IMG/VR virus record: IMGVR_UViG_3300025769_000005
Location: 2,085-66,084 of that record
Reading direction: 5' to 3' (one strand)
DNA length: 64,000 bases
Origin: a virus
Taxonomy: Duplodnaviria > Caudoviricetes
Shown: piece after piece, positions 4,831-56,201 of the stretch
Layout of the letters: the number at the start of each line of letters is the position of its first letter
Position numbering within the stretch: position 1 is the first letter of the stretch
The notes under the pieces: model-generated
Told to the model about the DNA's origin: nothing
Database searches by the model: none
The model's input: only the letters and a program-made list of their open reading frames with translations
Program-made: the position numbers and the translations under genes

Positions 4831-6384
4831 ATGTCAGACAAACTTGTCAAGAATCTTAACTTCGGTAGCGATGCCAAAGATAAGATATTTAAAGGGATAG
4901 ATAAACTCACAAAAGCTGTTAGCTCCACATTAGGAGCTAGCGGCAAATGTGTTATCCTTGAAGATGAATCCGGTAAACCAATTATTACAAAAGATGGTGT
5001 TACCGTTGCTAATTCAATAGTATTATTCGATGCTGTTGAAAACATGGGAGCAACATTACTAAAAGAAGCTGCTAGAAAAACTGTAGAAGAAGCCGGTGAT
5101 GGTACAACTACAGCAACAGTATTAGCTCAGTCAATACTAACTAAAGCAAGCTCTAAAGATATTAATTCAAGAGAATTAAAATTAGGTATTAACGCAGCTG
5201 TTAAAAAAGTTGTAAAATATCTTGAAGATAATTCCATCGAAGTTACAGGCGATATGATCGACCAAGTAGCCACAATCTCCTCAAATAACGATACTGAATT
5301 AGGTAAACTAATCGGTGGAGCTTTCAAAAGTGTAGCAAACACGGGAGTTGTGATGATGGAAGAATCTAATGATATAACTTCATCTGTTGAAGTAGTTGAT
5401 GGTATGCAATATCATAAGCCAGTTAAAAGCATGCACTTTGTGACTGACCAAGCTAAGAAAACATGTGAATTAAATAATCCATTAGTTTTAATCGTTGAAT
5501 CACAAATTGATAGTATAAGAAAAATACAAGGTGTGTTAGAATATGCTATAAAAAATAATGAATCACTTTTGATTATTGCAGATGTTGATCCTCAAGTTTT
5601 AGCTGCATTAGCTATGAATAAGATGAAAGGCAATATTAAAGTGTGTATAGTAGATGGACCAACATATGGTTTTACTAAAAAAGAAAAACTAAACGATCTA
5701 GCTATGATGACTGGAGCAACAGTTATTAATGAAGATTTAGGAGATGATATGGATTTAATTGAAGTTCAACATTTAGGTAGAGCTAAAAAATCTATAAGTG
5801 GACAACAGGATACTATTATTCAAATAGAGGAAACTCCTGATGAAGCAAAAGATCTAGTTGAACAAGTTAAGAAAAGATTAGCTACAGAAAAAGTTCCTGG
5901 ATTTATAGTAGCGCTAGAAAGAAGATTAGCGCTGTTAGCAGCTAAAGTTGCTATAGTAAAAGTTGGTGCTAATTCTGAAATTGAATTAAAAGAAAAAAGT
6001 GATAGAGTCGAAGACGCTATCTGTGCTACAAAAGCCGCAATCAAAGAAGGTATTGTATCTGGTGGAGGAATTGCTCTGCTAAATGCATCTTCATCTATCA
6101 AAGCTGAGTCAGAAGCTGAACAAACACTTCTAGACGCTATTAAAGCTCCTTTTAAGACAATATTAGATAACGCTGGTATATTAGACTACAAAGCGCCTAA
6201 AGTTCAAGGAGAAGGATTAGATGTGGTTACGGGAAATATGGTAAATATGATTGATAATGGTATCATCGATCCATTGTTAGTTACAAAAAGCGCTCTTTTA
6301 AACGCGGCTTCAGTAGCAACTACTATTTTATCAACTGATTGTATAATTAACAATATAAGAATACATGAGGGCGATAGGAAATAA
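4831..6384 (+). CDS. groEL: Chaperonin GroEL (Cpn60)
   Basis: ITKDGVTVA, AGDGTTTATVLAQ, GGGIALL, GIIDP motifs; no GGM tail. Confidence 0.97.
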   Translation: MSDKLVKNLNFGSDAKDKIFKGIDKLTKAVSSTLGASGKCVILEDESGKPIITKDGVTVANSIVLFDAVENMGATLLKEAARKTVEEAGDGTTTATVLAQSILTKASSKDINSRELKLGINAAVKKVVKYLEDNSIEVTGDMIDQVATISSNNDTELGKLIGGAFKSVANTGVVMMEESNDITSSVEVVDGMQYHKPVKSMHFVTDQAKKTCELNNPLVLIVESQIDSIRKIQGVLEYAIKNNESLLIIADVDPQVLAALAMNKMKGNIKVCIVDGPTYGFTKKEKLNDLAMMTGATVINEDLGDDMDLIEVQHLGRAKKSISGQQDTIIQIEETPDEAKDLVEQVKKRLATEKVPGFIVALERRLALLAAKVAIVKVGANSEIELKEKSDRVEDAICATKAAIKEGIVSGGGIALLNASSSIKAESEAEQTLLDAIKAPFKTILDNAGILDYKAPKVQGEGLDVVTGNMVNMIDNGIIDPLLVTKSALLNAASVATTILSTDCIINNIRIHEGDRK

Positions 6385-10287: not shown

Positions 10288-10515
10288 ATGAACTCTATTA
10301 TAAGAAAGATAAGTATAGGCGCGGACTATAAAAACGAAGCTATGCATTATTCTGTAGGACAATCAGTTTATGGTGGTCATACAATTAATAACATAACTTT
10401 AGACGAATCTGATAATTCTTATAATATATACATTAAAAAAAACGACGAGGTAATGCCGTGGAAGAAATTTAATTCTAACATGGCTATCTCTGTTGAATAC
10501 GATTTAGAGTATTAA
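10288..10515 (+). CDS. Hypothetical protein
   Basis: 75-aa ORF, translationally coupled to the next gene. Confidence 0.6.
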   Translation: MNSIIRKISIGADYKNEAMHYSVGQSVYGGHTINNITLDESDNSYNIYIKKNDEVMPWKKFNSNMAISVEYDLEY

Positions 10516-11120
10516 TGAACAGTGTATATGACTTTATTATATCTCCTAAAAACAAAAGATATAATAACGAGAAAAAAGTTGGTGATAAAACTTTAGTATT
10601 AAATACTAACATTGAAGATCACAAACTGGTTAGCAAAGAAGCAATTGTAGTTTCTGTGCCATTAGCGTTTAAAACTATTTTAAAAGTTGGAGATGAAATA
10701 ATGGTGCACCATAATATATTTAGAAGATGGTATGATGTTCGTGGCGAACAAAGAAACAGTGGTCAATATTTCAAAGAAGATTTATATTTTTGTAAACCAG
10801 ATCAAATTTATCTATATAAAAAAGATAATAAATGGTTAGCAATTGGTCAAAGGTGTTTTATAAAACCTATAAAAAACATTGACAATTTAACGCTTGATAT
10901 TGAACAAAAACATATTGGTATACTAAAAATAGGTAATAGTTCATTAGAAGCGCTAGGAATTAACGAGGGAGATCTTGTAGGTTTTAGAGCTAACAGAGAA
11001 TGGGAATTTATTGTAGGCGATCAGCGTCTTTATTGTATGAAATCAAATGATATTATTATAGAGTATGAATACCAAGGAAACGAAAAAGAATATAATCCAA
11101 GCTGGGCACGTAGCGGTTGA
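10515..11120 (+). CDS. GroES-like tandem beta-barrel protein
   Basis: AIVVSVP...LKVGDEIMV and GINEGDLVGF...LYCMKSNDII resemble two Cpn10 units. Confidence 0.5.
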   Translation: MNSVYDFIISPKNKRYNNEKKVGDKTLVLNTNIEDHKLVSKEAIVVSVPLAFKTILKVGDEIMVHHNIFRRWYDVRGEQRNSGQYFKEDLYFCKPDQIYLYKKDNKWLAIGQRCFIKPIKNIDNLTLDIEQKHIGILKIGNSSLEALGINEGDLVGFRANREWEFIVGDQRLYCMKSNDIIIEYEYQGNEKEYNPSWARSG

Positions 11121-28963: not shown

Positions 28964-31900
28964 ATGACTAGAGAAGAATTTATAGAATCATTAGACGAGT
29001 CATTATCTTACAATGCTAAACAAAAACTTTTAGCTCAGTGGGATATTGACAATCCTCAAACTGAACAAGTTGTTGAAGAAGTAAAGATAGACGTTGTTGC
29101 GGATCCAGTGGATGCAACTGTAGCAACGAAACCGGAAAATGCATCCGAGATAAAAGATACGGAATTAGAATCGGAGAATGGTTCTTTGGAGTCACAAGAA
29201 ATATATCAACCGTATTATATTCTAAGTAACGATAAAACAGTTAGTAATACTTTTGATATTATAAATCAAAGAACTAAAAGATATGTTGACCAAAAAAACA
29301 TTACTAAAGAATATTTAGATAGAATTAGCGGTAAAATAGCGCCAAATAGTTTGTTGATTGAAGAAGGAAAAAAACAAAAAGAATTTTCACTAGAAAAAAC
29401 CTTAGATTACAACGAAGATTATTATAATCAAAATCAATCATCTGAAAAAATAAAACCAATAATAGATACTAGGTTTAAAACAAAAGTAGATCCTTTAGGT
29501 TTAAACAAAGATTCTAAAGAAGAAAACAAAGTTGATTTATTTAATGAAATTCTTAAAGAAGAAGAAAAAAGAGTTTTAAATGAAGACACTTTTATAAACT
29601 ATGTTGATGGTTTTATAGAAGAAAATGATTTAGATATACCTTTGCCATATTTGTATTTTAATCCAAAAAAACAAACTGGCTTTATAGATCAATATTACGG
29701 TGGAACAAAAGTTTTAGAAGAATTTGGAATAAACACTGTTGACTTTGAGGGTTTTTTAACATCAAATGGTTATGCAGAAGATTTCTTAAATGCTATTGAC
29801 TCTGGTGAATACGATCAGCAAGGTGGTGATTTAGCTAAAGAAAGAGACTTAGAAGGTTATTTAAATTTTTATACTAGAATAATGGATTCTAGATTAAATC
29901 AAAACAAAAAACTTGATTTAATTAAAGAAGATTTAAAAGGAGAAAACAAAGTAGAAATATTTGGTTCAGCACAAGAAAATCTAAAAAAAGCTCTTAAAGA
30001 TTTTAAACCTGGGGACGCTTCTTATACTTTATTCGATCAAAGTTTAATGAAAGAATATAAACAGTCTAAGTTTAAACTTGCGGCAGATAAAGATAAAGAA
30101 TATCAATTAGCTAGAATTAAATACGCAAAAGAACTAGACAAAAGATCAGATGCTATGTCTGCTGCTGCAAACATAGGTCAAATGCTTGTAGAATCAGGAA
30201 AAGGTCTTTACCAAGGTTTTGAAGATTTATTTGATTTTGGTCTTAAAATAGCGGGCTTTGATGATTCGCTGGCTATTTCTCAAAACTTAAGAATGGAAGA
30301 AGAAAGAGCTAAAGATAATTCTTATTTTTTAAGTATAACAGGTAAAACTATAGAAAAATACGCTAAAGACGATGATGGTAATTTCTTATTAGATAAAAAC
30401 GGTGAAAAAATTAAAATAGTTTATGCTAAAGATTCTGATACTGGTCAAATATACAATGTAACTAAAGGCTATAATATGGGTGGTATTATAGATGCTTTTG
30501 AATTAAAAATGTTAAATGATGAAATAGAAAAATCTGATAGAATTGAAGATCATTATTCTGCTAGAGGTTTTTTAACTACAGGAGGAAATGTAGTTGGAAA
30601 TGTAATGTCTCAGGTTATAGGACAAAAAGGTGTAGGATACTTAACAAATGCTGTTAAGCTAAAAACTCTTGCCGCTGCTAATGGTTTTACTTCGATAAAA
30701 AAATATAAAAACATACGTGATCTGAGTGTTGCTGTTGGAGGGAAAGCACCTACTAGAATACCTGTTAAAAAATCTGTAGTAGATGCTATGTTATTTCAAT
30801 CAACATACGGGGGAGCTATAGGTTACAAACAAACTTTAGATTCAGCAAAACAAGCTGGTTTTACAAATGCAGAGGCAGAGGCTTTAGCTTCTTCAGCCTC
30901 ACAAAACATGGCGGTTTGGTATGCTGCAACTGGCCCATTAAACACTAGAACTGGATGGTTAGATGGAACTCTAGGTAAATTAGGAATAAATAGAATAGTT
31001 AATTCATCTATTTTAGCTGCTAGAAAAGAATCACAAAAAGCTAGCACAAATGCTTTTTTAAATAAATCCTTTACAAAAAACTTACAACTTAGATTATCTA
31101 ACTTGTCAACAAAATTAGCTAACAATGGTATAGTTTTTGTTAAAGAAGGTTCTAAAGAATTTGTTCAAGAAAACACTCAGCAAGCTGGAGAGTATTTGTG
31201 GATAAATAAAACGTTAAACATGAAGACAGGTATAAATTTTCTTAAAGATACTTATACTGACAATGATATAAAATCAACATCTATACTTTCTTTTGTTACC
31301 GGTGGCTTACTTTCACAAATGCAAGTGCCTAATTTTAAACCTAACTCTGCTGCTCAAGTAGATAATTACATTTATATTGCAAATAATAGCAATGACGCAG
31401 AGATAGAATTAAATAAATTAGTAGAATCTGGTTTAGCAACTCAAGAAGAAGCTGATCAAATAATGAAAAACGCTCAAGCAATTTATAACAATGCAGCTTC
31501 AATACCCGCTTGGATGCTTGAAACAGATTTTGTGCTAGAATCTAGTCTTTTACTTCAAGAAAAAAAAGATATAGAATTAAGAAAAAAGAAAACTGACCCA
31601 GCTTTTCACGGTCCTGATAATGATAAATTACAAGAAATTGACAACAAGTTAAAAGAAATTAACCTTGAGGCTTTAGCTTCTACAGACGCAGCTGCTGCTG
31701 TAGAAAAAGATGTTGAAAGCGTAACTAAGATTGTTGGTGAAGAAAACATAGAAACATTTGATACTACTGAAAAGTGGAAAGCTAGATTAGATGAATTAGA
31801 TATACCAGATGGTTACGATGCAGATGCTTTGTTCCATGAAAAAGATGGCAAAATATATATTAACAAACAAAGAGCCGCTGAAGTAGAAGCTGTAACGGCA

Positions 31901-34900
31901 GCTAATCACGAGTTATTACATAAAATAACAGCTTCTTTATTTAACGATCCTGAAAAAGGTAAAGAATTAGTAGAAAAATTTAAGAAAATATTGAGTCCGT
32001 CTGAAATGAAAGTAGTACAAAAACGTATTGACGACAATTATAAATTTAAAAGAGATGATGATGGTAATATTTTATTAGACGAAGACGGTAAAAAAATTGA
32101 AAATGACGAATCTACTTATGACAAAGAATGGTTTACAGCTTTTTCTGATGCGTTAGGTAAAAAAGAAATTAATTGGTCAGATAATTTAGGTGAAAGTTTT
32201 TTAAGATTAAAAGATAAATTTTTAAATGTATTTAAAGAAAAAGGTTTTGAAAATGCTGATTTTAAAACAGGTAGAGATATTTACAACTTTATAAGAGACT
32301 ATTCTTATAACATGAGAAAAGGAAAAGGCATTGACTCTAAAGCTAAAGCTTTATTAAAGGCTCCTGTTATACTTTCTAAAGAAGTTTCTTTATCACAAAC
32401 AGCCTCAGATAAAGTACAAAATATATTTGACAATCAAGGAACTGATGGAACTTTTGAAATTATAAAAGAATATGAAGGTATGGCTAATAAAATAGCTAAT
32501 AAATACCAAGATGTTCCTGGTTTTGATAGACAACTACTTGTTGATGAAATATTAACAGGTAGGCGTGGTGTTTTAGATATGATTAGTGAGTACGATCCTG
32601 CTACCAATGTGCCTCTTGCTGCTTATATAAACAAATATTTAAGATCTAGAGCGATAGAAGCTGCTAATAGAATATTAAAACAAGAGTTTGAAACTGATGT
32701 AACAGAGGCTAAAGGTGTTGTAGCAGAAGAAACTAAACAACCAGAAGTCGTTAGTAGAAAAGTTAAAAAACCTAGCGAAACTACAGGTTTTGATAAAGCT
32801 ACTGAAACTAGAATTGATGAAGCTGTAAGTGAAAATTTTAAAGGCAATGACGTTAAGTTTTCAGATACTAAAAACGTTCCTAAAGAAGTAGCAAATGTGT
32901 ACGCAGAAAAGCTAGGTCTTAATCCACAAACAATTACAGATAAAACAAGAAATTACTCTAAAAAAGACGCACAAGGTTTAACTAAAGCAAAACAATTTTT
33001 ACTTAAAAACGCTAAAGATGATTATGCTCGTTTACCTAAATTAAAAGATGACTTTGGTAAAGGTACTTTTGTTCCTAAAAACGTTAAAGATGCTTTATAT
33101 ACTGATGGTAAATTAACAGGTAGTTTAAAAGACTACATTAATCTTATTAGAGAAAAGCCAATTAAACCTATATACAGAGATCGCGTAGGTCAAACTATTA
33201 GAGGTTTATTAAACTTAGCTATTAGAAATCGTATGCTTGAAACAGCACAACCCTCACGAGCTAAAAGATTACAATCAGGGGCTTTATTTAGCAGATCGAC
33301 TTACGGTATTTTTGATTTAAAATTAAAAGGCACGTTAAAAGTAAATACTCTTTTAACAGGGAAAGGTTTAAAAAAATCTTTAGACTTTAAAACTTTAGTA
33401 AATACTCCAGAGGGAAGAGAAGAAATAATAAAAACTTTTAAAAATGAAGTTGTTGTCCTTGGACCAAAAGAGATGTGGATGGGTAAGCGTGGTGCAAACG
33501 TATTTACTACAAGTGGTGCTGATTGGGGTATAAGCATGTCCCCTACAATAACAAGAGGACCTAATAAAGGAAAACCAAATCCTAGATATGATAAAAAGAA
33601 AGCAGATGCACTTACTGAATTAAGAAAAGGTTTTAACAAAATGCTTAATGACAAGAAAACTAAATTTGGCAAACCTATTACCTACAAGGATGCAAATGGT
33701 AATACAAAAACTTTAACTGATTTTACATTATCTTCTTATGGAACTATTTTTAAAGGCGCGCCTGAAGAAATAAAAAGCAAATCAAAAAAGTTTAATACTA
33801 AAACAGGAGCTATACACAAAGCTCTATGGAGTCGCATTGCAGAAAGAATTAAAAAAGACAAAAAACGAGCTCCAGCTATAGCTTCTTATTTAAAATTAGT
33901 AGCTAATCACACTGGTCACTGGCACAAATTAGGTGCTCAAATTTGGGGTTACTCACCTAAACCAAGAGGGAAAAACGGTACTTTGTACGAATATGAACAT
34001 GCTATGCCAGCAACGGCAGCATATTTATACCTACTAGACAACGCTATTAATAATTTTGGTTCCAGTAAAAGTAATTTTAATAAAGCTTATAAATTAGTAA
34101 TAAAAAATTATAAGCTTATTGCTTTAGACGCGTCTCAAAATGCTAAACTTGGACTAGCTAGACTAGGTAGAACAATGCCTCAAGGCTGGAATTTAATAGA
34201 CAATTTTTGGTGGCAAAGATATTTTAACGATAAAGTAGCGCAATTTAATGGTGGTATTGATCCTAGCTCTGTTGTAGATTTAGATGGTCAAACAATGGCA
34301 AATGTTTTTAAAATAAAAGCCAACGGTCAACCAACTACTGAATCTTTAATTAACGAAGCAAAAACTGCAGTTACTTTAAATGATAATACTTTTGGAGATA
34401 AGTCTTCATTTAGCAAAACAACAATTGGCCAAATACAAAACTTAAGTAATTATGACAAAGCTGCTAAAAAAGCTAGAAGTTTAAATACAACTGAAAGAGG
34501 TATTAGCGTGTTTGATTTTGATGACACATTAGCTAGAACTAAAAGTAAAGTTATAGTAACTATGCCTAATGGCAAAACATTTAAAATAGACGCTACAGAG
34601 TTTGCAAAAAATTCTGTAACACTAGAAGAGCAAGGCGCTAAATTTAATTTTGATGAATTTAATAAAGTTATTGATGGTAAAAAAGGACCACTAGCAGATC
34701 TTGCTTTAAAACGTCAAGGTAAATTTGGCAGCCAAAATATATTTGTGTTAACAGCTAGACCACAACTTGCCGCCGAAGGTATAAAAGCTTTTTTAGATGG
34801 TATAGGTTTAAATTTACCGTTAAGTAATATTACAGGATTAGAAGACGGATCACCGCAAGCTAAAGCTAACTGGATTGTAAGTAAAGCCGCTGAAGGTTAT

Positions 34901-37162
34901 AATGATTTTTATTTTGCAGATGACGCTATCAAAAACGTTAAAGCGGTTAAAGAAGTTTTAGATCAGGTGGATGTCAAATCTAAAGTGCAACAAGCTATTT
35001 TTAGTAAAACTAAAACTTTTGATAAAATTATAAATGATATTCTTGAAAGTGGCACAGGTATAAAATCTGAAGCTAAGTTTTCTAAAGCAAGAGCACAAAC
35101 AGTTGGAGCTGGTAAAGGCAAGTTTACTTTCTTTACAACACCATCAGCAGAAGACTTTGTAGGTTTAATATATAAGTTTATAGGTAAAGGAAAAGTTGGT
35201 GATGCGCAGTTACAGTTTTTTCAAGATAATTTAATTGATCCTTATAATAGAGCAGAGCAAGCCGTAACTAGAGCTAAGATAACTGCTGCTAATGATTTTA
35301 AAGCACTTAAAAACAGTCTTAAGACGTTACCTAAGTCATTATCTAAGAAAACAGGTATTGGAGGGTTTACGTTTGGTCAAGCTGCTAGAGTTGCAGTGTG
35401 GACAAGACAAGGTGTGGAAGTTCCTGGTCTATCTAAAAGAGACGCAAAAGAATTAAACGCTTTTATAGATAATAATGCTGAGCTTGATGTTTTTGTAGAT
35501 GAATTAATAAACATACAAAAAGGTAAACCATATCCTAAACCTAGTCAAACTTGGTTAGCTGGTAATATAACATCGGATATTGTTAACGAAATAAATAAAG
35601 TTAACAGAAAAGAATACATGCAAGAGTTTAATGAAAATATTGATATAATATTCTCAGACAAAGTTATGAATAAGCTTGAAGCTGCATACGGTCCTAAATA
35701 TGTAGAAGCTTTGCGTGATATTATTCGTAGAATGAAGTCAGGTTCTAATAGACCTGTAGGTAATTCAAGAATTGTAGATGGATTACTAAACTGGTTAAAT
35801 AATTCTGTTGGTGCTATAATGTTCTTAAACACAAGATCTGCAGTGTTACAAACTATATCTGCAGTAAACTTTATAAACTTTGGTAACAATAATCTTTTAG
35901 CTGCTGGCAAAGCATTTGCTAATCAAAAGCAATATTGGAAAGACTTTATGACATTATTTAATTCACCTTACTTAGTTGAAAGACGTGATGGATTAAAGAT
36001 CAATGTTAGTGAATCTGAAATAGCAGATGCTGTAGCAGAAAGTTCTAATAAACCAAAAGCATTTTTAAACCTATTACTTAGCAAAGGTTTTGTTCTTACA
36101 AGATTTGCAGATAGTTTTGCTATTGCGGCTGGTGGTTCTACATTTTATAGAAATCAAGTTGCTGCTTATGTTAAAGGTGGTATGGATCAAAAAGCTGCAG
36201 AAAAACAAGCGTTTGATGATTTCTACGCTATTGCAGAAGAAAGTCAGCAGTCAAGTAATCCAAGCAAAATATCACAACAACAAGCATCAGGTGCTGGTCG
36301 TGTGATACTAGCTTTTGCTAATACGCCAATGCAATATGCTCGTATAATAAAAAGATCTAGTCAAGATCTTGTAAATGGTAGAGGTGATTGGAAAACTAAT
36401 GTTTCTAAAATAGTGTACTACGGAGCAATGCAAAACCTTATATTTAACGCGTTGTCTAACGCTTTATTTGCTTTAGCTTTTGACGAAGAAGATGAAGAAC
36501 AAGAAGATAAAACAGGTAGAATAGCAAATGGTATGGCTGATTCATTATTAAGGGGTCTTGGTATACGAGGCGCTGCTGTTTCCGCTGTTAAAGACGCTTT
36601 AATAACTGTATATGAAGAAGAAAACAAAGAAAAAGGCGCGCCTGAACTTAGAAAAGCTATAACTGATCTATTTGGTTTTTCACCACCACTTGATTCTAAA
36701 ATTAGAAAACTAACAAGTGGTCTTAATACATTATCATGGGAACGTGAAAAAATGAATCAAGAAGGTTTTAACTTAAACAACCCTGCTTATTTAGCTTTTG
36801 CTCAAGTAATTTCTGGTTTAACAAACGTACCATTAGATAGAGCAATAACAAAGATAAATAACTTAAGAGCTGTAACAAGTGATAGTTCTGATAAATGGCA
36901 AAAAGTTGCCTTATTAATGGGTTGGTCAGCTTGGGATCTTGGTTTACCATATTATGGTGTTGAAGACAAAGTAGAGATGACACCGCAAATGATACTTAAA
37001 GAAAAGGTAAACAAAATGAAAAAAGAAACTAGCACTAAACAACAAAAAGAAACGTTGTTAAAGCTAGGACTAACTAAGCAACAAATAAAAGCTTTAAAAT
37101 ACGAAGAAGCAAGAGTTAAAAAAATAATTGAACTACAAGAAAAAAAAGATGGTAAAAATTAA
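28964..37162 (+). CDS. Giant polyvalent (probably ejected) protein: zincin HExxH, sigma70 region 2/4-like and HAD phosphatase domains
   Basis: NHELLH (~31907); GVLDMISEYDPATNVPLAAYINKYLRSRAI (~32570); DFDDTL..TAR..K..FADD (~34510-34930). Confidence 0.75.
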   Translation: MTREEFIESLDESLSYNAKQKLLAQWDIDNPQTEQVVEEVKIDVVADPVDATVATKPENASEIKDTELESENGSLESQEIYQPYYILSNDKTVSNTFDIINQRTKRYVDQKNITKEYLDRISGKIAPNSLLIEEGKKQKEFSLEKTLDYNEDYYNQNQSSEKIKPIIDTRFKTKVDPLGLNKDSKEENKVDLFNEILKEEEKRVLNEDTFINYVDGFIEENDLDIPLPYLYFNPKKQTGFIDQYYGGTKVLEEFGINTVDFEGFLTSNGYAEDFLNAIDSGEYDQQGGDLAKERDLEGYLNFYTRIMDSRLNQNKKLDLIKEDLKGENKVEIFGSAQENLKKALKDFKPGDASYTLFDQSLMKEYKQSKFKLAADKDKEYQLARIKYAKELDKRSDAMSAAANIGQMLVESGKGLYQGFEDLFDFGLKIAGFDDSLAISQNLRMEEERAKDNSYFLSITGKTIEKYAKDDDGNFLLDKNGEKIKIVYAKDSDTGQIYNVTKGYNMGGIIDAFELKMLNDEIEKSDRIEDHYSARGFLTTGGNVVGNVMSQVIGQKGVGYLTNAVKLKTLAAANGFTSIKKYKNIRDLSVAVGGKAPTRIPVKKSVVDAMLFQSTYGGAIGYKQTLDSAKQAGFTNAEAEALASSASQNMAVWYAATGPLNTRTGWLDGTLGKLGINRIVNSSILAARKESQKASTNAFLNKSFTKNLQLRLSNLSTKLANNGIVFVKEGSKEFVQENTQQAGEYLWINKTLNMKTGINFLKDTYTDNDIKSTSILSFVTGGLLSQMQVPNFKPNSAAQVDNYIYIANNSNDAEIELNKLVESGLATQEEADQIMKNAQAIYNNAASIPAWMLETDFVLESSLLLQEKKDIELRKKKTDPAFHGPDNDKLQEIDNKLKEINLEALASTDAAAAVEKDVESVTKIVGEENIETFDTTEKWKARLDELDIPDGYDADALFHEKDGKIYINKQRAAEVEAVTAANHELLHKITASLFNDPEKGKELVEKFKKILSPSEMKVVQKRIDDNYKFKRDDDGNILLDEDGKKIENDESTYDKEWFTAFSDALGKKEINWSDNLGESFLRLKDKFLNVFKEKGFENADFKTGRDIYNFIRDYSYNMRKGKGIDSKAKALLKAPVILSKEVSLSQTASDKVQNIFDNQGTDGTFEIIKEYEGMANKIANKYQDVPGFDRQLLVDEILTGRRGVLDMISEYDPATNVPLAAYINKYLRSRAIEAANRILKQEFETDVTEAKGVVAEETKQPEVVSRKVKKPSETTGFDKATETRIDEAVSENFKGNDVKFSDTKNVPKEVANVYAEKLGLNPQTITDKTRNYSKKDAQGLTKAKQFLLKNAKDDYARLPKLKDDFGKGTFVPKNVKDALYTDGKLTGSLKDYINLIREKPIKPIYRDRVGQTIRGLLNLAIRNRMLETAQPSRAKRLQSGALFSRSTYGIFDLKLKGTLKVNTLLTGKGLKKSLDFKTLVNTPEGREEIIKTFKNEVVVLGPKEMWMGKRGANVFTTSGADWGISMSPTITRGPNKGKPNPRYDKKKADALTELRKGFNKMLNDKKTKFGKPITYKDANGNTKTLTDFTLSSYGTIFKGAPEEIKSKSKKFNTKTGAIHKALWSRIAERIKKDKKRAPAIASYLKLVANHTGHWHKLGAQIWGYSPKPRGKNGTLYEYEHAMPATAAYLYLLDNAINNFGSSKSNFNKAYKLVIKNYKLIALDASQNAKLGLARLGRTMPQGWNLIDNFWWQRYFNDKVAQFNGGIDPSSVVDLDGQTMANVFKIKANGQPTTESLINEAKTAVTLNDNTFGDKSSFSKTTIGQIQNLSNYDKAAKKARSLNTTERGISVFDFDDTLARTKSKVIVTMPNGKTFKIDATEFAKNSVTLEEQGAKFNFDEFNKVIDGKKGPLADLALKRQGKFGSQNIFVLTARPQLAAEGIKAFLDGIGLNLPLSNITGLEDGSPQAKANWIVSKAAEGYNDFYFADDAIKNVKAVKEVLDQVDVKSKVQQAIFSKTKTFDKIINDILESGTGIKSEAKFSKARAQTVGAGKGKFTFFTTPSAEDFVGLIYKFIGKGKVGDAQLQFFQDNLIDPYNRAEQAVTRAKITAANDFKALKNSLKTLPKSLSKKTGIGGFTFGQAARVAVWTRQGVEVPGLSKRDAKELNAFIDNNAELDVFVDELINIQKGKPYPKPSQTWLAGNITSDIVNEINKVNRKEYMQEFNENIDIIFSDKVMNKLEAAYGPKYVEALRDIIRRMKSGSNRPVGNSRIVDGLLNWLNNSVGAIMFLNTRSAVLQTISAVNFINFGNNNLLAAGKAFANQKQYWKDFMTLFNSPYLVERRDGLKINVSESEIADAVAESSNKPKAFLNLLLSKGFVLTRFADSFAIAAGGSTFYRNQVAAYVKGGMDQKAAEKQAFDDFYAIAEESQQSSNPSKISQQQASGAGRVILAFANTPMQYARIIKRSSQDLVNGRGDWKTNVSKIVYYGAMQNLIFNALSNALFALAFDEEDEEQEDKTGRIANGMADSLLRGLGIRGAAVSAVKDALITVYEEENKEKGAPELRKAITDLFGFSPPLDSKIRKLTSGLNTLSWEREKMNQEGFNLNNPAYLAFAQVISGLTNVPLDRAITKINNLRAVTSDSSDKWQKVALLMGWSAWDLGLPYYGVEDKVEMTPQMILKEKVNKMKKETSTKQQKETLLKLGLTKQQIKALKYEEARVKKIIELQEKKDGKN
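30578..30629 (+). repeat. Exact 52-bp direct repeat, copy 2
   Basis: Identical to 7921-7972 and encodes the same peptide, TGGNVVGNVMSQVIGQK. Confidence 0.95.
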
Positions 37163-49453: not shown

Positions 49454-50185
49454 TTAAAGGGTTTTAGTTAAAAAATATTGTTTAGGATCAAAGTCCTCTG
49501 ACTTATAAAATAATTCATAAGCCTCGACTGCTCTTTTTACTTTATCTTGACCTCGTTCATAGAACTCAGGTGAGCAATCAAAGATACCTATTTGATGTGT
49601 GTTTTTGTCTATTGCAATGAATAGCATTTCGTAACCAAATAGTTTACTGTAAATATAAGCTTGACTATCATAGTTGTACTTAGATGCTGAATACTTAAAC
49701 TTTGTAATGTCTGCTGTCGTCTTTAAATCGATAATCAGTTTTTCATCATGGTTTACAATATCAGCTTTACCTTTCCACATTTGACCTTCAAGCTCTGTAA
49801 TTTCAGGTTGTTCATATTTAACATTGCCTGATCTTATTAAATCTCTACATACTTCGTTGTCTAGCATCTTTTCTGTCATTAATTCAATTTGATCAACCTC
49901 ATGTTTTAATAAACACATTTCACCCCCTGAAATCTCCTTATATGCTTTAGTATTTCTAGTTGTAGCTTCTACTATCTTAAAATTCTTAAGCTTGTCTGGC
50001 TCAAGTATTGCTGTGTGAAAGTATCCACCGACTAGAAACGCAGGTCTTTGTGCTTGCTGCTTTCCTAAAGCTAAGGGATTGGTTAAGAGCGTACCGATGT
50101 CTGAATTACTAAGATACTTTTTACCAAAGTCTCCGTAATAATTAGCATCATCTTCTAACGCTTTTAATACCTCTTGCTTTTTCAT
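49454..50185 (-). CDS. RecE/exonuclease VIII-like PD-(D/E)XK nuclease
   Basis: LSNSD, FHTAILEP, KGKAD, IDLKTT, YDSQAYIY. Confidence 0.85.
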   Translation of the reverse strand: MKKQEVLKALEDDANYYGDFGKKYLSNSDIGTLLTNPLALGKQQAQRPAFLVGGYFHTAILEPDKLKNFKIVEATTRNTKAYKEISGGEMCLLKHEVDQIELMTEKMLDNEVCRDLIRSGNVKYEQPEITELEGQMWKGKADIVNHDEKLIIDLKTTADITKFKYSASKYNYDSQAYIYSKLFGYEMLFIAIDKNTHQIGIFDCSPEFYERGQDKVKRAVEAYELFYKSEDFDPKQYFLTKTL

Positions 50186-50186
50186 A

Positions 50187-50732
50187 CTACAGTGTTGTTA
50201 ATTCTTGCTCTGCTTCTTTAGACAGGGCATACTTAGCTTTAATAGCTTCGATTTTACCTCCAGCTTTTACATAGTCTTTAGCTTTAGCTAACTGGTCTGC
50301 TGTTATAGAGGATTTAGTTTTTGGCACAAATTTCTTTTTGCCGTGATCATTAGTAGCGTCACTATCAGCTGTATCATCAATTAGAAATAAATTACCTAAC
50401 GCGTACTTTTTTGCATACGAAGATGCTGAACCAAATTGTTGTGGTACGTTCATACCCTTTTGGTTTAAGTCTACACCGACAATTGCTTTTGCATGAATCA
50501 TGTCTTTACCATCGCTGATAGTTGCTGTAGATTCCATGACAGGCATATTGTCAAATAATACGTTAAGTTCTTCATTGATCGTAACTGTTACTCCTAACTC
50601 TAATAGAAAGGGTTTTGTTGCTTCTAGGATGTCTTCGGCTGATCTGAAGTTGTACTTGCCGAAGGAGTTAAATCTACTCTTTTTCGATTTAAACTTTGTT
50701 TGGATTGTCGCTAATTTTTCGTTTATGTTCAT
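50187..50732 (-). CDS. ERF-family ssDNA annealing protein
   Basis: YNFRSAEDIL, QQFGSASSYAKKYAL.NLF..DD..D.D. Confidence 0.88.
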   Translation of the reverse strand: MNINEKLATIQTKFKSKKSRFNSFGKYNFRSAEDILEATKPFLLELGVTVTINEELNVLFDNMPVMESTATISDGKDMIHAKAIVGVDLNQKGMNVPQQFGSASSYAKKYALGNLFLIDDTADSDATNDHGKKKFVPKTKSSITADQLAKAKDYVKAGGKIEAIKAKYALSKEAEQELTTL

Positions 50733-50758: not shown

Positions 50759-50787
50759 TATAATTACATGTATTAGATTTAATTTAC
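50759..50787 (-). promoter_or_regulatory. Class II promoter-like motif upstream of the ERF/replication operon
   Basis: Minus strand gtaaattaaatctaatacatgtaattata. Confidence 0.5.
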
Positions 50788-51536
50788 AGGTAGTCAAGCA
50801 CTTGCGAGTGATCTACGTTGTCTATTAATTTCTGTACTGCTTGTTTTTTTAGTTCTGATACTCTTACATAATCACTTGCTCCTGTTATACCTAAAGTTAA
50901 TGCTATATCTTTAGCTGAGTGTTTATCACAGTCTAAACCATAGCTCAATCTTAGTACTTCAAACTCTTTATCAGTTAAATGTTTTCTTAATAAACCTACT
51001 AAATATATATTTAATAACTGTATGTTATAAGGCTCAGACTTATCAGGTATTTGATACATAGAGTTTTCATCGTCTGTAGGTTGTGCGTCAATAGATAAAA
51101 ATATACTATTAAAAAACATTGCAACCATTTTTTGATCTTTACCATTGTCTTTACGTATTTCATTTAGCTTATGTTCAGGTATACGTATATCACCTCTGTT
51201 TTTATCTATAGCTCTACGTATAGCGCCTTTAATTCTTTTTGATAGAAATGATTTTAAAGTTTTTTCTACGTCTTCGGATTGTTCTAATGTTTCCCAGTCT
51301 AATCTATCTACAGCTTTTGTAAGACCTGCGCTACCTTCTTGTATGATATCATTAATACTCATAACGCCTGAAGCTTGTTGTGTTGTTGAAAACTTACGCG
51401 CTATATTTTCTACTAAAGGTAAAAACTTAGTTATAAGTTCTTTTCTAGTATATTGATCATAAGGCTTATCATCAGGCATACAAGCCTTAACGTCTTCTTT
51501 GTATCGTATGTAATTCTTTACATTATATTTTTTCAT
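50784..51536 (-). CDS. Phage sigma70-family factor
   Basis: Region 2 LPLVENIARKF...DIIQEGSAGLTKAVD...RIKGAI; region 4 VLRLSYGL..AKDIA..LG...RVSELKKQAVQKL. Confidence 0.9.
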   Translation of the reverse strand: MKKYNVKNYIRYKEDVKACMPDDKPYDQYTRKELITKFLPLVENIARKFSTTQQASGVMSINDIIQEGSAGLTKAVDRLDWETLEQSEDVEKTLKSFLSKRIKGAIRRAIDKNRGDIRIPEHKLNEIRKDNGKDQKMVAMFFNSIFLSIDAQPTDDENSMYQIPDKSEPYNIQLLNIYLVGLLRKHLTDKEFEVLRLSYGLDCDKHSAKDIALTLGITGASDYVRVSELKKQAVQKLIDNVDHSQVLDYL

Positions 51537-55162: not shown

Positions 55163-55176
55163 ATTATTGTTTATTA

Positions 55177-55209
55177 TATTATCCAACTGTTATTGTATTT
55201 TGTTTGTAA
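55177..55209 (-). promoter_or_regulatory. Early promoter-like motif, copy 2
   Basis: TTACAAACA-N15-TGGATAATA. Confidence 0.75.
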
Positions 55210-55293
55210 CTAGATGAGGAATCGAACCTCAATACTCGTCAGTAGTCGCATATAGAGCACCTCTTTTTAGAACTATATAAACCATACCTAGTT
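55207..55293 (-). ncRNA. tRNA-like RNA B (87 nt, no D-stem)
   Basis: AACUAGG/UCUAGUU acceptor stem plus A; T-arm UGAGG-UUCGAUU-CCUCA; UAUGGU linker; two internal hairpins. Confidence 0.6.
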
Positions 55294-55433
55294 AGTCAGC
55301 TAGTTAGTGTGACTATTGTCTCCTATTTCTAGCATGTGCTAGCAATTCAGTTATGTGATTAGGTACCATTTATCGTGGTATCTTTGCGGCATTCGCCCAC
55401 CTAACCCTAATTAACCTACTCGTCTAGCAATGT

Positions 55434-55462
55434 GCTCACCTTTGCTTTCGCCGCGGTTGAGC
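55434..55462 (-). repeat. Hairpin module CAACCGCGGCGAAAGCAAAGGUG, copy closed by GCU/AGC
   Basis: 55437-55459 identical to 55840-55862. Confidence 0.85.
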
Positions 55463-55616
55463 TAACTCCATTCTTGGAGCATTATAATTGCCATATCTTT
55501 TATGGACTTCATTTCTTCATCAGTTAGATCATTATAGTTTACTATACGTTCTAACGCGTGTTCTATTGTGTCTATTAAATAGCAAGCTTCACGCTCTACT
55601 ATTTCCATTTCTTGTT

Positions 55617-55796
55617 TTATTCCGCTATCCATGTTAATCCTTTATAGTTAAACCAATTTGAAATACCTGCTTGTTCTTTTTCTTCATTATATATAAAGCC
55701 AAATGTTGGAAGTAATTCGCCTACAGCATAACCTTTATACTTTAGACCTTCGCTAGTTTTAGCGGTAGTTTTTGATGTGAATTTTATTCTTTGCAT
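55617..55796 (-). CDS. 59-aa hypothetical protein
   Basis: MQRIKFTSK...KGLTWIAE; directly after tRNA-like RNA A; not in the ORF track. Confidence 0.55.
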   Translation of the reverse strand: MQRIKFTSKTTAKTSEGLKYKGYAVGELLPTFGFIYNEEKEQAGISNWFNYKGLTWIAE

Positions 55797-55809
55797 ATTT
55801 ATTATTTAG

Positions 55810-55882
55810 TGGACGTGGCAGGATTCGAACCTGCGTTGACACCTTTGCTTTCGCCGCGGTTGTCGCTTACCATTTCACGCCC
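55810..55882 (-). ncRNA. tRNA-like RNA A (73 nt), resembling the tRNA-like domain of tmRNA
   Basis: GGGCGUG/CACGUCC acceptor with G3:U70 and A73; AAAUGGUAAGCGAC 5' loop; T-arm GCAGG-UUCGAAU-CCUGC. Confidence 0.7.
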
Positions 55883-55885
55883 ATT

Positions 55886-55964
55886 TACCACCTGTCACTA
55901 CGACTGGCTTTGTACAACTGATACCTTAAGGAAGCCAAGGCGTCGGTTTACTGTTAGGGTGGTA
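55886..55964 (-). ncRNA. Long interrupted hairpin in the leader of RNA A
   Basis: Nested stems UACCACC/GGUGGUA, CGAC/GUCG, UGGCUU/AAGCCA. Confidence 0.45.
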
Positions 55965-56153
55965 TTATTTTCTACGCCATGCTTTGTGTACTGCTGCAGA
56001 TAGTTCTTGTGATACTATTTGTAGCTCGAGCACTTGTTTGTTACCGATAATTGGTATATAACTATAAAGCTCGGTTGTGCTACAATTGACACAGGTTCTA
56101 TAACCTAAGGCTAATCGACCTTGAGGAATTACATTTGTACATTTACATTTCAT
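55965..56153 (-). CDS. TraR/DksA-type C4 zinc-finger protein
   Basis: CKC...IPQGRLALGYRTCVNC. Confidence 0.6.
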   Translation of the reverse strand: MKCKCTNVIPQGRLALGYRTCVNCSTTELYSYIPIIGNKQVLELQIVSQELSAAVHKAWRRK

Positions 56154-56168
56154 ATTGTTTGTTTATTA

Positions 56169-56201
56169 TATTATCCAATAATTATTGTATTTTGTTTGTA
56201 A
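56169..56201 (-). promoter_or_regulatory. Early promoter-like motif, copy 3
   Basis: TTACAAACA-N15-TGGATAATA. Confidence 0.75.

Follow-up and report, generated by a model that had tools for sequence, protein, structure and literature searches.

Genomic context of the locus

The locus lies in a window of 64,000 nucleotides (positions 2,085 to 66,084 of IMG/VR record IMGVR_UViG_3300025769_000005), the stretch of DNA analysed here. The whole genome of this marine phage, named G000, has 66,084 bases, and its ends share 127 identical bases, as expected for a closed assembly. It encodes a terminase, a portal protein, a primase/helicase, ribonucleotide reductase, a sigma factor, an ERF-like protein and an exonuclease. 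GroEL- and GroES-like genes are found in the structural region (4831-6384 and 10515-11120, plus strand), and an ORF of 2732 aa at 28964-37162 (plus strand) has no PHROG match. Among the terminase matches, 86 of 87 are phages named for Flavobacteriaceae hosts, with an identity of at most 44%; the closest match is an uncultured record (64% identity). Judging from these names, the host of the phage is presumably flavobacterial.

Two copies of a short hairpin, in the following called the module, are surrounded by a cluster of tRNA-like RNAs, further hairpins and small ORFs (Table 1). Their position among small ORFs without a family, downstream of a promoter-like motif, suggests that they belong to an early region. 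Further copies of this motif are located at about 55172-55207 (overlapping the S2 3' end), 53937 and 58344 (minus strand). It differs from the sigma-70 consensus, and a phage-encoded sigma factor is located at 50784-51536.

Table 1. Features of the module cluster; all positions refer to the window.
Feature	Position	Strand	Remarks
Module copy 1	55437..55459; core 55438-55457	-	GCU/AGC closer at 55434-55462
Module copy 2	55840..55862; 20-nt core 55841-55860	-	GA/UC closer at 55838-55864
RNA A (carrier S1): tag-less tmRNA tRNA-like domain (TLD)	55807..55882	-	Rfam RF00023
RNA A, acceptor	55876-55882 paired with 55811-55817	-	G3.U70; RF00023 alignment
RNA A, other parts	discriminator A 55810; T arm 55818-55834	-	D loop stemless, with GG; no encoded CCA
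Module C: free hairpin bundle, leader of RNA A	55887..55963	-	S1 insert in L004, L096 and L098
Module B: carrier stem, AGUA/GAA loop, three-way junction 55359-55404	55338..55428	-
Module D: hairpin	55298..55333	-	S1 insert and nesting carrier in L016, L028, L039 and L067
Carrier S2: second tRNA-like RNA	55207..55293	-	holds an insert other than the module here; the module in relatives
Promoter-like motif upstream of the cluster	56164..56199	-	repeated motif; putative promoter
62-aa ORF	55965..56153	-	two CxxC pairs; no family
59-aa ORF between the two copies	55617..55796	-	no family
56-aa ORF	55462..55632	-	stop codon abuts copy 1; no family
Exonuclease VIII-like and ERF-like annealing genes	49454..50732	-	candidate cassette-exchange machinery (presumed link)

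An array of hairpins (55298-55462) reaches from the stop codon of the 56-aa ORF to S2, and copy 1 takes its first slot. The slots vary among 27 distinct versions of the array, with module B present, absent or replaced. Module B, whose AGUA/GAA loop we take to be S-turn-like, is flanked by a short direct repeat and missing from the array in many relatives, and metagenome runs contain a contig joint across it (55311 to 55423). Its three-way junction serves as an S1 or S2 insert elsewhere. Two loci (L144 and L153) carry another hairpin in the first slot instead of the module. The same presence and absence of array parts was seen at contig joints in four marine runs. S2 is built from a 7-bp acceptor, a short GG loop, the insert, a variable-arm-like hairpin and a T arm. 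All non-coding pieces of the cluster occur as inserts or carriers elsewhere, and G000 showed no cassette site beyond this cluster.

Of 24 runs listed, 8 are recorded as RNA, all in the form of assembled contigs; four were examined. Their summed contig depth is highest at the T arm of S2 and at RNA A; this depth sums over relatives and cannot rank the parts, and it was left uncounted.

Sequence and fold of the two copies

A first-pass annotation of the letters alone had described an identical 23-nt hairpin at two sites. Both copies are indeed exact and lie on the minus strand, while 100 dinucleotide shuffles yielded no match; a third copy with up to three mismatches was not found within the window. 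The fold is predicted as proposed in both contexts, with an ACC/GGU helix, a 3x3 internal loop and a 2-bp GC stem carrying a GAAA loop, and the two copies have the different closing stems that had been assigned to them. In the natural context, the CC/GG and GC/GC pairs reach pairing probabilities of 0.99-1.0, and the bulged A is ambiguous, being shared 50:50 between two adjacent As. The 23-mer alone does not fold convincingly better than its shuffles (z = -1.71; 14 of 200 equally good). With the closing stems, z-scores of -2.4 and -2.7 were obtained, and -3.07 for the whole of RNA A. The GC content of the module is 0.61, compared to 0.34 for the genome.

The two closing stems had also been read as a compensatory change within one genome. 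This reading has to be abandoned: the stems sit on two different carriers, and thus do not represent a compensatory change in one homologous helix. The proposed double display, in contrast, is seen in the two copies here and in at least three independent arrangements overall (the window type, L128 and L320).

RNA A is a tRNA-like domain without a message

In RNA A, copy 2 occupies the place of the tmRNA helix H2 and of the whole mRNA-like domain. Its sequence aligns to both ends of RF00023, with 27 nt where the model has 326, and scores 32.4 bits (E = 4.7e-11), which is below the gathering score of 47. Neither ARAGORN nor Rfam calls a tRNA, a tmRNA or any Rfam family at cut-off in the window, and RNA A itself is uncalled by ARAGORN. 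It nevertheless carries the 7-bp acceptor with G3.U70, which we take as alanine identity, A73, a T arm and a stemless D loop. The latter two define tmRNA's tRNA-like domain in the passages available from PMC3968760. An mRNA-like domain, a tag frame and a pseudoknot ring are absent from RNA A (a full tmRNA has 230-400 nt), and it does not agree with canonical tRNA (RF00005), which has a D arm and an anticodon arm with a loop of 7 nt; a D stem is lacking. The TLD-only type, known from phage DS6A, fits RNA A, but neither copy 1 nor S2.

Among 119 unique S1 RNAs, G3.U70 is present in 117 and A73 in 118, both partly fixed by the search patterns, and position 4-69 covaries. Compared to host TLDs, the S1 elbow has a D loop that is one base shorter after the GG, with the GG and the AC before the T stem kept; the connector reads AAC in 106 of the 119 RNAs, where host tmRNAs have GGAC.

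A 244-nt phage tmRNA with a tag frame (L024:703-946, minus strand) has an acceptor stem identical to that of RNA A and is a possible intermediate toward S1. A full tmRNA (87.6 bits) is also encoded by the cultured Cellulophaga phage phi38:1, a terminase relative; its tag is long and unusual. In view of this acceptor match and of the phi38:1 tmRNA, a phage tmRNA that lost its message region is a plausible origin of S1. L085, tried as another full tmRNA, received no ARAGORN call and was rejected. S1 carriers often adjoin a tRNA-Met(CAT) (L003, L008, L026, L037, L042, L141, L200, L211, L285), which the window does not have.

The module in related phages

Absence from relatives, which the first-pass annotation had named as evidence against the element, is not what we found: the exact 23-mer is present in seven IMG/VR contigs. 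By our own count, 58 of 118 metagenome loci and 30 of 73 IMG/VR loci place the module in a phage carrier context, the rest being of chance type. About ten carrier contexts were distinguished. On S1 the module occurs directly or nested in two other carriers, and it is also found on S2, on a third tRNA-like carrier, in the free array, in module B and on two further stems. Pattern scans added the third tRNA-like carrier (L002), nested forms (L073, L076, L341), terminator-like and other stems (L187, L274, L275) and a locus with two module arms (L320). The latter (L320:330-470) is a variant-acceptor carrier with two adjacent arms, whose loops read AAAA and GAGA.

Among the carrier-only matches listed, the module was seen in 8 of the 116 S1 loci and 6 of the 48 S2 loci that were parsed, and it is the commonest single insert of that catalogue. 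Variation within these loci is confined to the N position (G/A/U) and one loop base (A/U), and other variants with up to five mismatches were not found. The strand of the module is that of the T arm in 129 of 136 occurrences, counted over redundant loci, and the opposite strand in none.

After removal of three non-phage chance matches (L252, L258, L271) from 34 contexts, 31 distinct contexts remained. Conservation therein reaches 90% or more in 18 of the 20 core-and-loop columns, most of which had been fixed by the search patterns. The outer C-G pair and the bulged A are not kept across these contexts, whereas the 20-nt core is invariant; this invariance could also reflect a recent spread by recombination. 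For the closing stem we used the 15 of the 31 contexts that we judged to share the bulged-A register. 92.6% of their cells are paired, compared to 17-28% in slid controls, and none of 500 shuffles was as high. All four outer pairs of this stem show two-sided changes. In the hairpin forms, all five core pairs are constant, and thus show no covariation and are silent on the fold.

A scan for the flanking carrier (38 loci) revealed split forms in L558, L578 and L586. Here, a long insert takes the place of the cap, both module strands are kept, and the second inner pair is changed from C-G to U-A or U.G. Unconstrained folding of L558 and L578 reproduces the module loop; for L586, an alternative fold is favoured by 2.7 kcal/mol. 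The inner helix is supported by these three contigs, which are related to each other. L560 has a 5-nt loop instead of the cap, and other loops are also found in L128 and L320. In S1-type closers, 84 stretches gave chance matches only for a split module. As the cap is replaced by a long insert in three contigs, the sequence data point to the NCG/AAA internal loop as the unit, rather than to the whole hairpin or the bulged A. The hairpin as the conserved unit thus holds in part: the element is structured and its sequence is kept, but the GAAA cap and the bulged A are dispensable in the sequences compared.

A blastn search with the region and with RNA A against cultured phages gave no match, and a search of five cultured or deposited terminase relatives, run without a positive control, did not find the module. 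The module is a portable RNA unit of uncultured phages whose closest cultured relatives infect Flavobacteriaceae.

Carriers and their pool of inserts

Scanning for the S1 3' end gave at least 119 loci and the S2 scan 49 loci; parsing of all phage loci yielded 119 unique S1 and 55 unique S2 RNAs. A total of 173 inserts was grouped into 96 families, 66 of which occur in S1 and three in both S1 and S2; these counts depend on the clustering threshold and the parsers and are inflated by nested variants. 12-mers are shared by 61 family pairs, which reflects nesting, compared to 0.74 in shuffles that do not keep the RNA-motif vocabulary. A closing stem of four or more pairs bounds the insert in 114 of 119 S1 RNAs, compared to 68 of 200 control chimeras. 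Near-empty carriers occur as well (L013, L222, L517). For inserts from 40 loci no Rfam family was found, neither at cut-off nor by E-value, and all matches concerned the tRNA or tmRNA scaffold; a 20-nt unit is close to the detection limit of such scans. As far as can be judged from these comparisons, the carriers are a natural tRNA-scaffold display set, with approximately 96 insert families that are shared and nested.

Some loci are of interest in their own right. An insert module is tandemly duplicated within one S2 carrier (L515). In L097, L100, L105, L110, L114 and L064, self-pairing of a short direct repeat produces an internal loop with two-fold symmetry, as would suit a dimeric partner. 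The group L438-L506 consists of unrelated IMG/VR contigs with tRNA-like RNAs and imperfect acceptor stems, and lies outside this system. In the cultured Tenacibaculum phage Gundel_1 (NC_062747.1, 68787-68896; L686, L691), an annotated tRNA-Tyr of 110 nt shows two T-loop-like motifs and no ARAGORN call; this element is a possible tRNA-like carrier holding nested inserts. In phi38:1 (KC821614.1, 15678-15750, minus strand; L688), an unannotated intergenic tRNA-like element has an S1-like 3' end without G3.U70 and no ARAGORN call.

Comparison with host RNAs

The module had been suggested to be a decoy of a host RNA site, with a comparison of the 23-mer and its fold to host RNAs proposed as a check. 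We carried out this comparison on sampled Bacteroidia, including genomes with the Flavobacteria-type 6S RNA, using shared words, ungapped best matches, a two-strand scan for the loop and a covariance model; CRISPR repeats and antitoxin RNAs were included via the whole-genome scans. No match was found in host 16S, 23S, RNase P, SRP, 6S-Flavo or tmRNA beyond the GC-GAAA-GC cap and one 10-mer. The best match is the 23S hairpin near nt 650, which shares the cap and is identical in 14 of 20 positions; the 10-mer, from the 3' strand of the module, occurs in one SRP RNA. The covariance model reaches at most 11.1 bits in 24 host loci, compared to 30-42 bits for true copies, and the two-strand loop scan gave no host-conserved pairing that matches known helices. 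With up to one mismatch, 32 of 401 Bacteroidia genomes match; the reversed control gives about 32, so that this is chance level. A GTDB scan returned 27 matches, two in a phage-type context on short contigs and the rest scattered.

As a class, the 96 inserts match 23S slightly more often in sense: at 13/16 identity, 19 and 28 do so, compared to 9 and 12 in antisense and 15 and 13 in the reversed control; at 14/16 identity and against 16S this excess is absent. Module C shares a word of 13-14 nt with the 23S of one host genome (L413, near nt 2560), which is the longest insert-to-host match and roughly what chance gives for a search of this size. The loop does not fit several RNAs considered for likeness either, that is, c-di-GMP-I P2, SRP helix 8, 16S h45, the BglG/LicT antiterminator site, Y RNA, and the hammerhead and twister cores. 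Lacking a counterpart in host rRNA, RNase P, SRP, 6S or tmRNA, the literal host-site decoy is unsupported, and the module is unlikely to be a host RNA copied letter by letter; a decoy need not copy its model in this way.

Proposed function and alternatives

We favour, with a probability of about 0.55, the explanation that the module is a portable ligand-binding RNA unit, probably for a protein, which acts in early host takeover or counter-defence. This explanation builds on the portability of the module, its covarying carriers, its dispensable cap, the nesting and the shared inserts described above. The working part would be the N-C-G/A-A-A internal loop between the ACC/GGU helix and a G-C pair, with N free and the GNAA cap merely closing the stem. 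The module would be transcribed early, in a polycistronic transcript, from which host tRNA-processing enzymes may excise the tRNA-like carriers as stable small RNAs showing the loop. Release and stability would then be analogous to laboratory tRNA-scaffold expression. ERF-type proteins are annealing proteins. Acting on the constant carrier ends as homology arms, phage recombination could swap and nest inserts from a pool of approximately 100 kinds. The loop may bind a host or phage protein, or a small molecule; the likeliest purpose would be titration of host-takeover or anti-phage factors, with the two copies raising the dose. Considering all inserts, the set of modules most likely binds something in the infected cell.

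A tentative extension, for which the odds are clearly against us at present, is that this group of phages keeps a naturally evolved, recombining aptamer library of approximately 100 modules, each sponging a specific defence protein or immune nucleotide. If so, it would be the RNA equivalent of anti-defence gene islands and, like these, be reshuffled among phages, and the NCG/AAA loop would be its commonest specificity.

As the main alternative, the function might reside in the carriers. S1 could antagonise trans-translation by titration of SmpB, AlaRS or EF-Tu, or be a sacrificial tRNA-like substrate, with the inserts as inert hitchhiking caps. TLD-only RNAs are reported to be inhibitors of tmRNA, possibly through titration of SmpB (Mao et al. 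2009, in the account excerpted from PMC4131195), and SmpB-like domains are predicted in defence systems according to a section of PMC10542128. S1 keeps G3.U70 and A73 with a covarying position 4-69, almost any insert is accepted, and near-empty carriers exist. Yet copy 1 lies outside any tRNA-like carrier, the same module is found on S2, which does not have G3.U70, and S1 departs from host TLDs at the expected SmpB-binding site (D loop and connector). Moreover, the unpaired loop bases persist where the cap is replaced, and an inert cap needs neither an asymmetric purine loop nor nesting. We therefore consider a function of the carriers alone rather unlikely.

Docking between RNAs is improbable in our opinion. 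Here the module would be a loop receptor or tetraloop that packs phage small RNAs together or with another insert. The inserts are rich in what we take to be a tertiary-motif vocabulary (GNRA caps, AGUA/GAA loops, CCUAAC stretches, three-way junctions), and L320 displays two arms in tandem, but the GNRA cap is dispensable, with other loops in L128, L320 and L560, and no obligatory partner insert is evident in the neighbourhoods read. The chances are slim, too, for a module that copies a universal host RNA site and thereby decoys its protein or toxin: what it shares with the 23S hairpin is precisely the dispensable cap, and the SRP 10-mer and the slight sense excess are set against the low covariance scores, the chance-level genome counts and the disappearance of that excess under the stricter comparison. 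Least of all do we expect the repeat to act as DNA, be it as a recombination site, a protein-binding site or a selfish insert with an incidental fold. Exact repeats, the short direct repeats around module B, the presence/absence variants and the ERF-like and exonuclease genes nearby would be in line with such a role; the fixed orientation on the transcribed strand, the U.G and G.U substitutions in stems, the GNRA-type loops, the siting within tRNA-like folds and the survival of both strands when split by long inserts argue against it.

Comparison with known systems

Small, repeated, structured phage RNAs that bind a host defence protein are exemplified by the pseudo-ToxI repeats of phage phiTE and by RNA anti-CRISPRs. 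These copy a recognisable host RNA and are not placed on tRNA-like scaffolds, whereas no host original was found for the module. tRNA and tmRNA fragments take part in one anti-CRISPR, as stated in an extract of PMC11662646. If the cargoes described here bind host factors, phages possess an RNA-level repertoire for counter-defence or takeover that annotation tools have missed.

Neither the module nor any exchangeable cargo on tRNA-like carriers of phages turned up in the literature searched, to which subscription papers largely do not belong. For the survey of structured RNAs from viruses by Fremin et al. (PMC10690425), six supplement files gave no match, and three others may list these RNAs. 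The consulted portion of PMC9004378 concerns two-piece phage tmRNAs, not exchangeable cargo carriers. RNAC and RNAD of phage T4 are small RNAs from the tRNA region and late RNAs (PMC9697503, PMC3014915); the excerpts, compared by description only, mention no modular exchange, unlike the situation here. Small RNAs from tRNA regions and TLD-only tmRNAs are an old puzzle, to which the module opens a direct test: mutants and controls follow from the 20-nt loop itself, since its free position is known, its cap can be dispensed with and its carriers occur in nature.

Full-length tmRNAs are known from phages, e.g., Cellulophaga phage Calle (PMC8776804, in part). Together with those of phi38:1 and L024, the Calle tmRNA keeps its tag frame, unlike S1, and tmRNAs of this type are a plausible source of S1. 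The type of the S1 carrier itself, the TLD-only tmRNA, is already known. A TLD-only (CDS-less) tmRNA is listed for mycobacteriophage DS6A, and CDS-less tmRNAs occur in organelles (PMC4131195, PMC11915505, both in extracts). Like S1, the DS6A RNA has little beyond the tRNA-like domain, with an alanine-type acceptor, a T arm, a stemless D loop and no tag. In our phages, however, exchangeable and nestable inserts (66 S1 families) occupy a slot where H2 and the message would be; the extracts mention nothing comparable for DS6A. These inserts are common to non-alanine carriers and free arrays, and the module is not part of tmRNA.

A close parallel in design is the engineered tRNA scaffold, which stabilises inserted aptamers (PMC3753655, in the parts at hand). 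Both share a constant top half of the tRNA, with a cargo hairpin replacing the lower arm. The engineered version is a laboratory design with a D arm, stable via host processing, whereas the carriers described here are natural, D-stemless, of several kinds and known from their sequences. Natural, exchangeable and nestable RNA cargoes on several tRNA-like carriers appear to be a new architecture.
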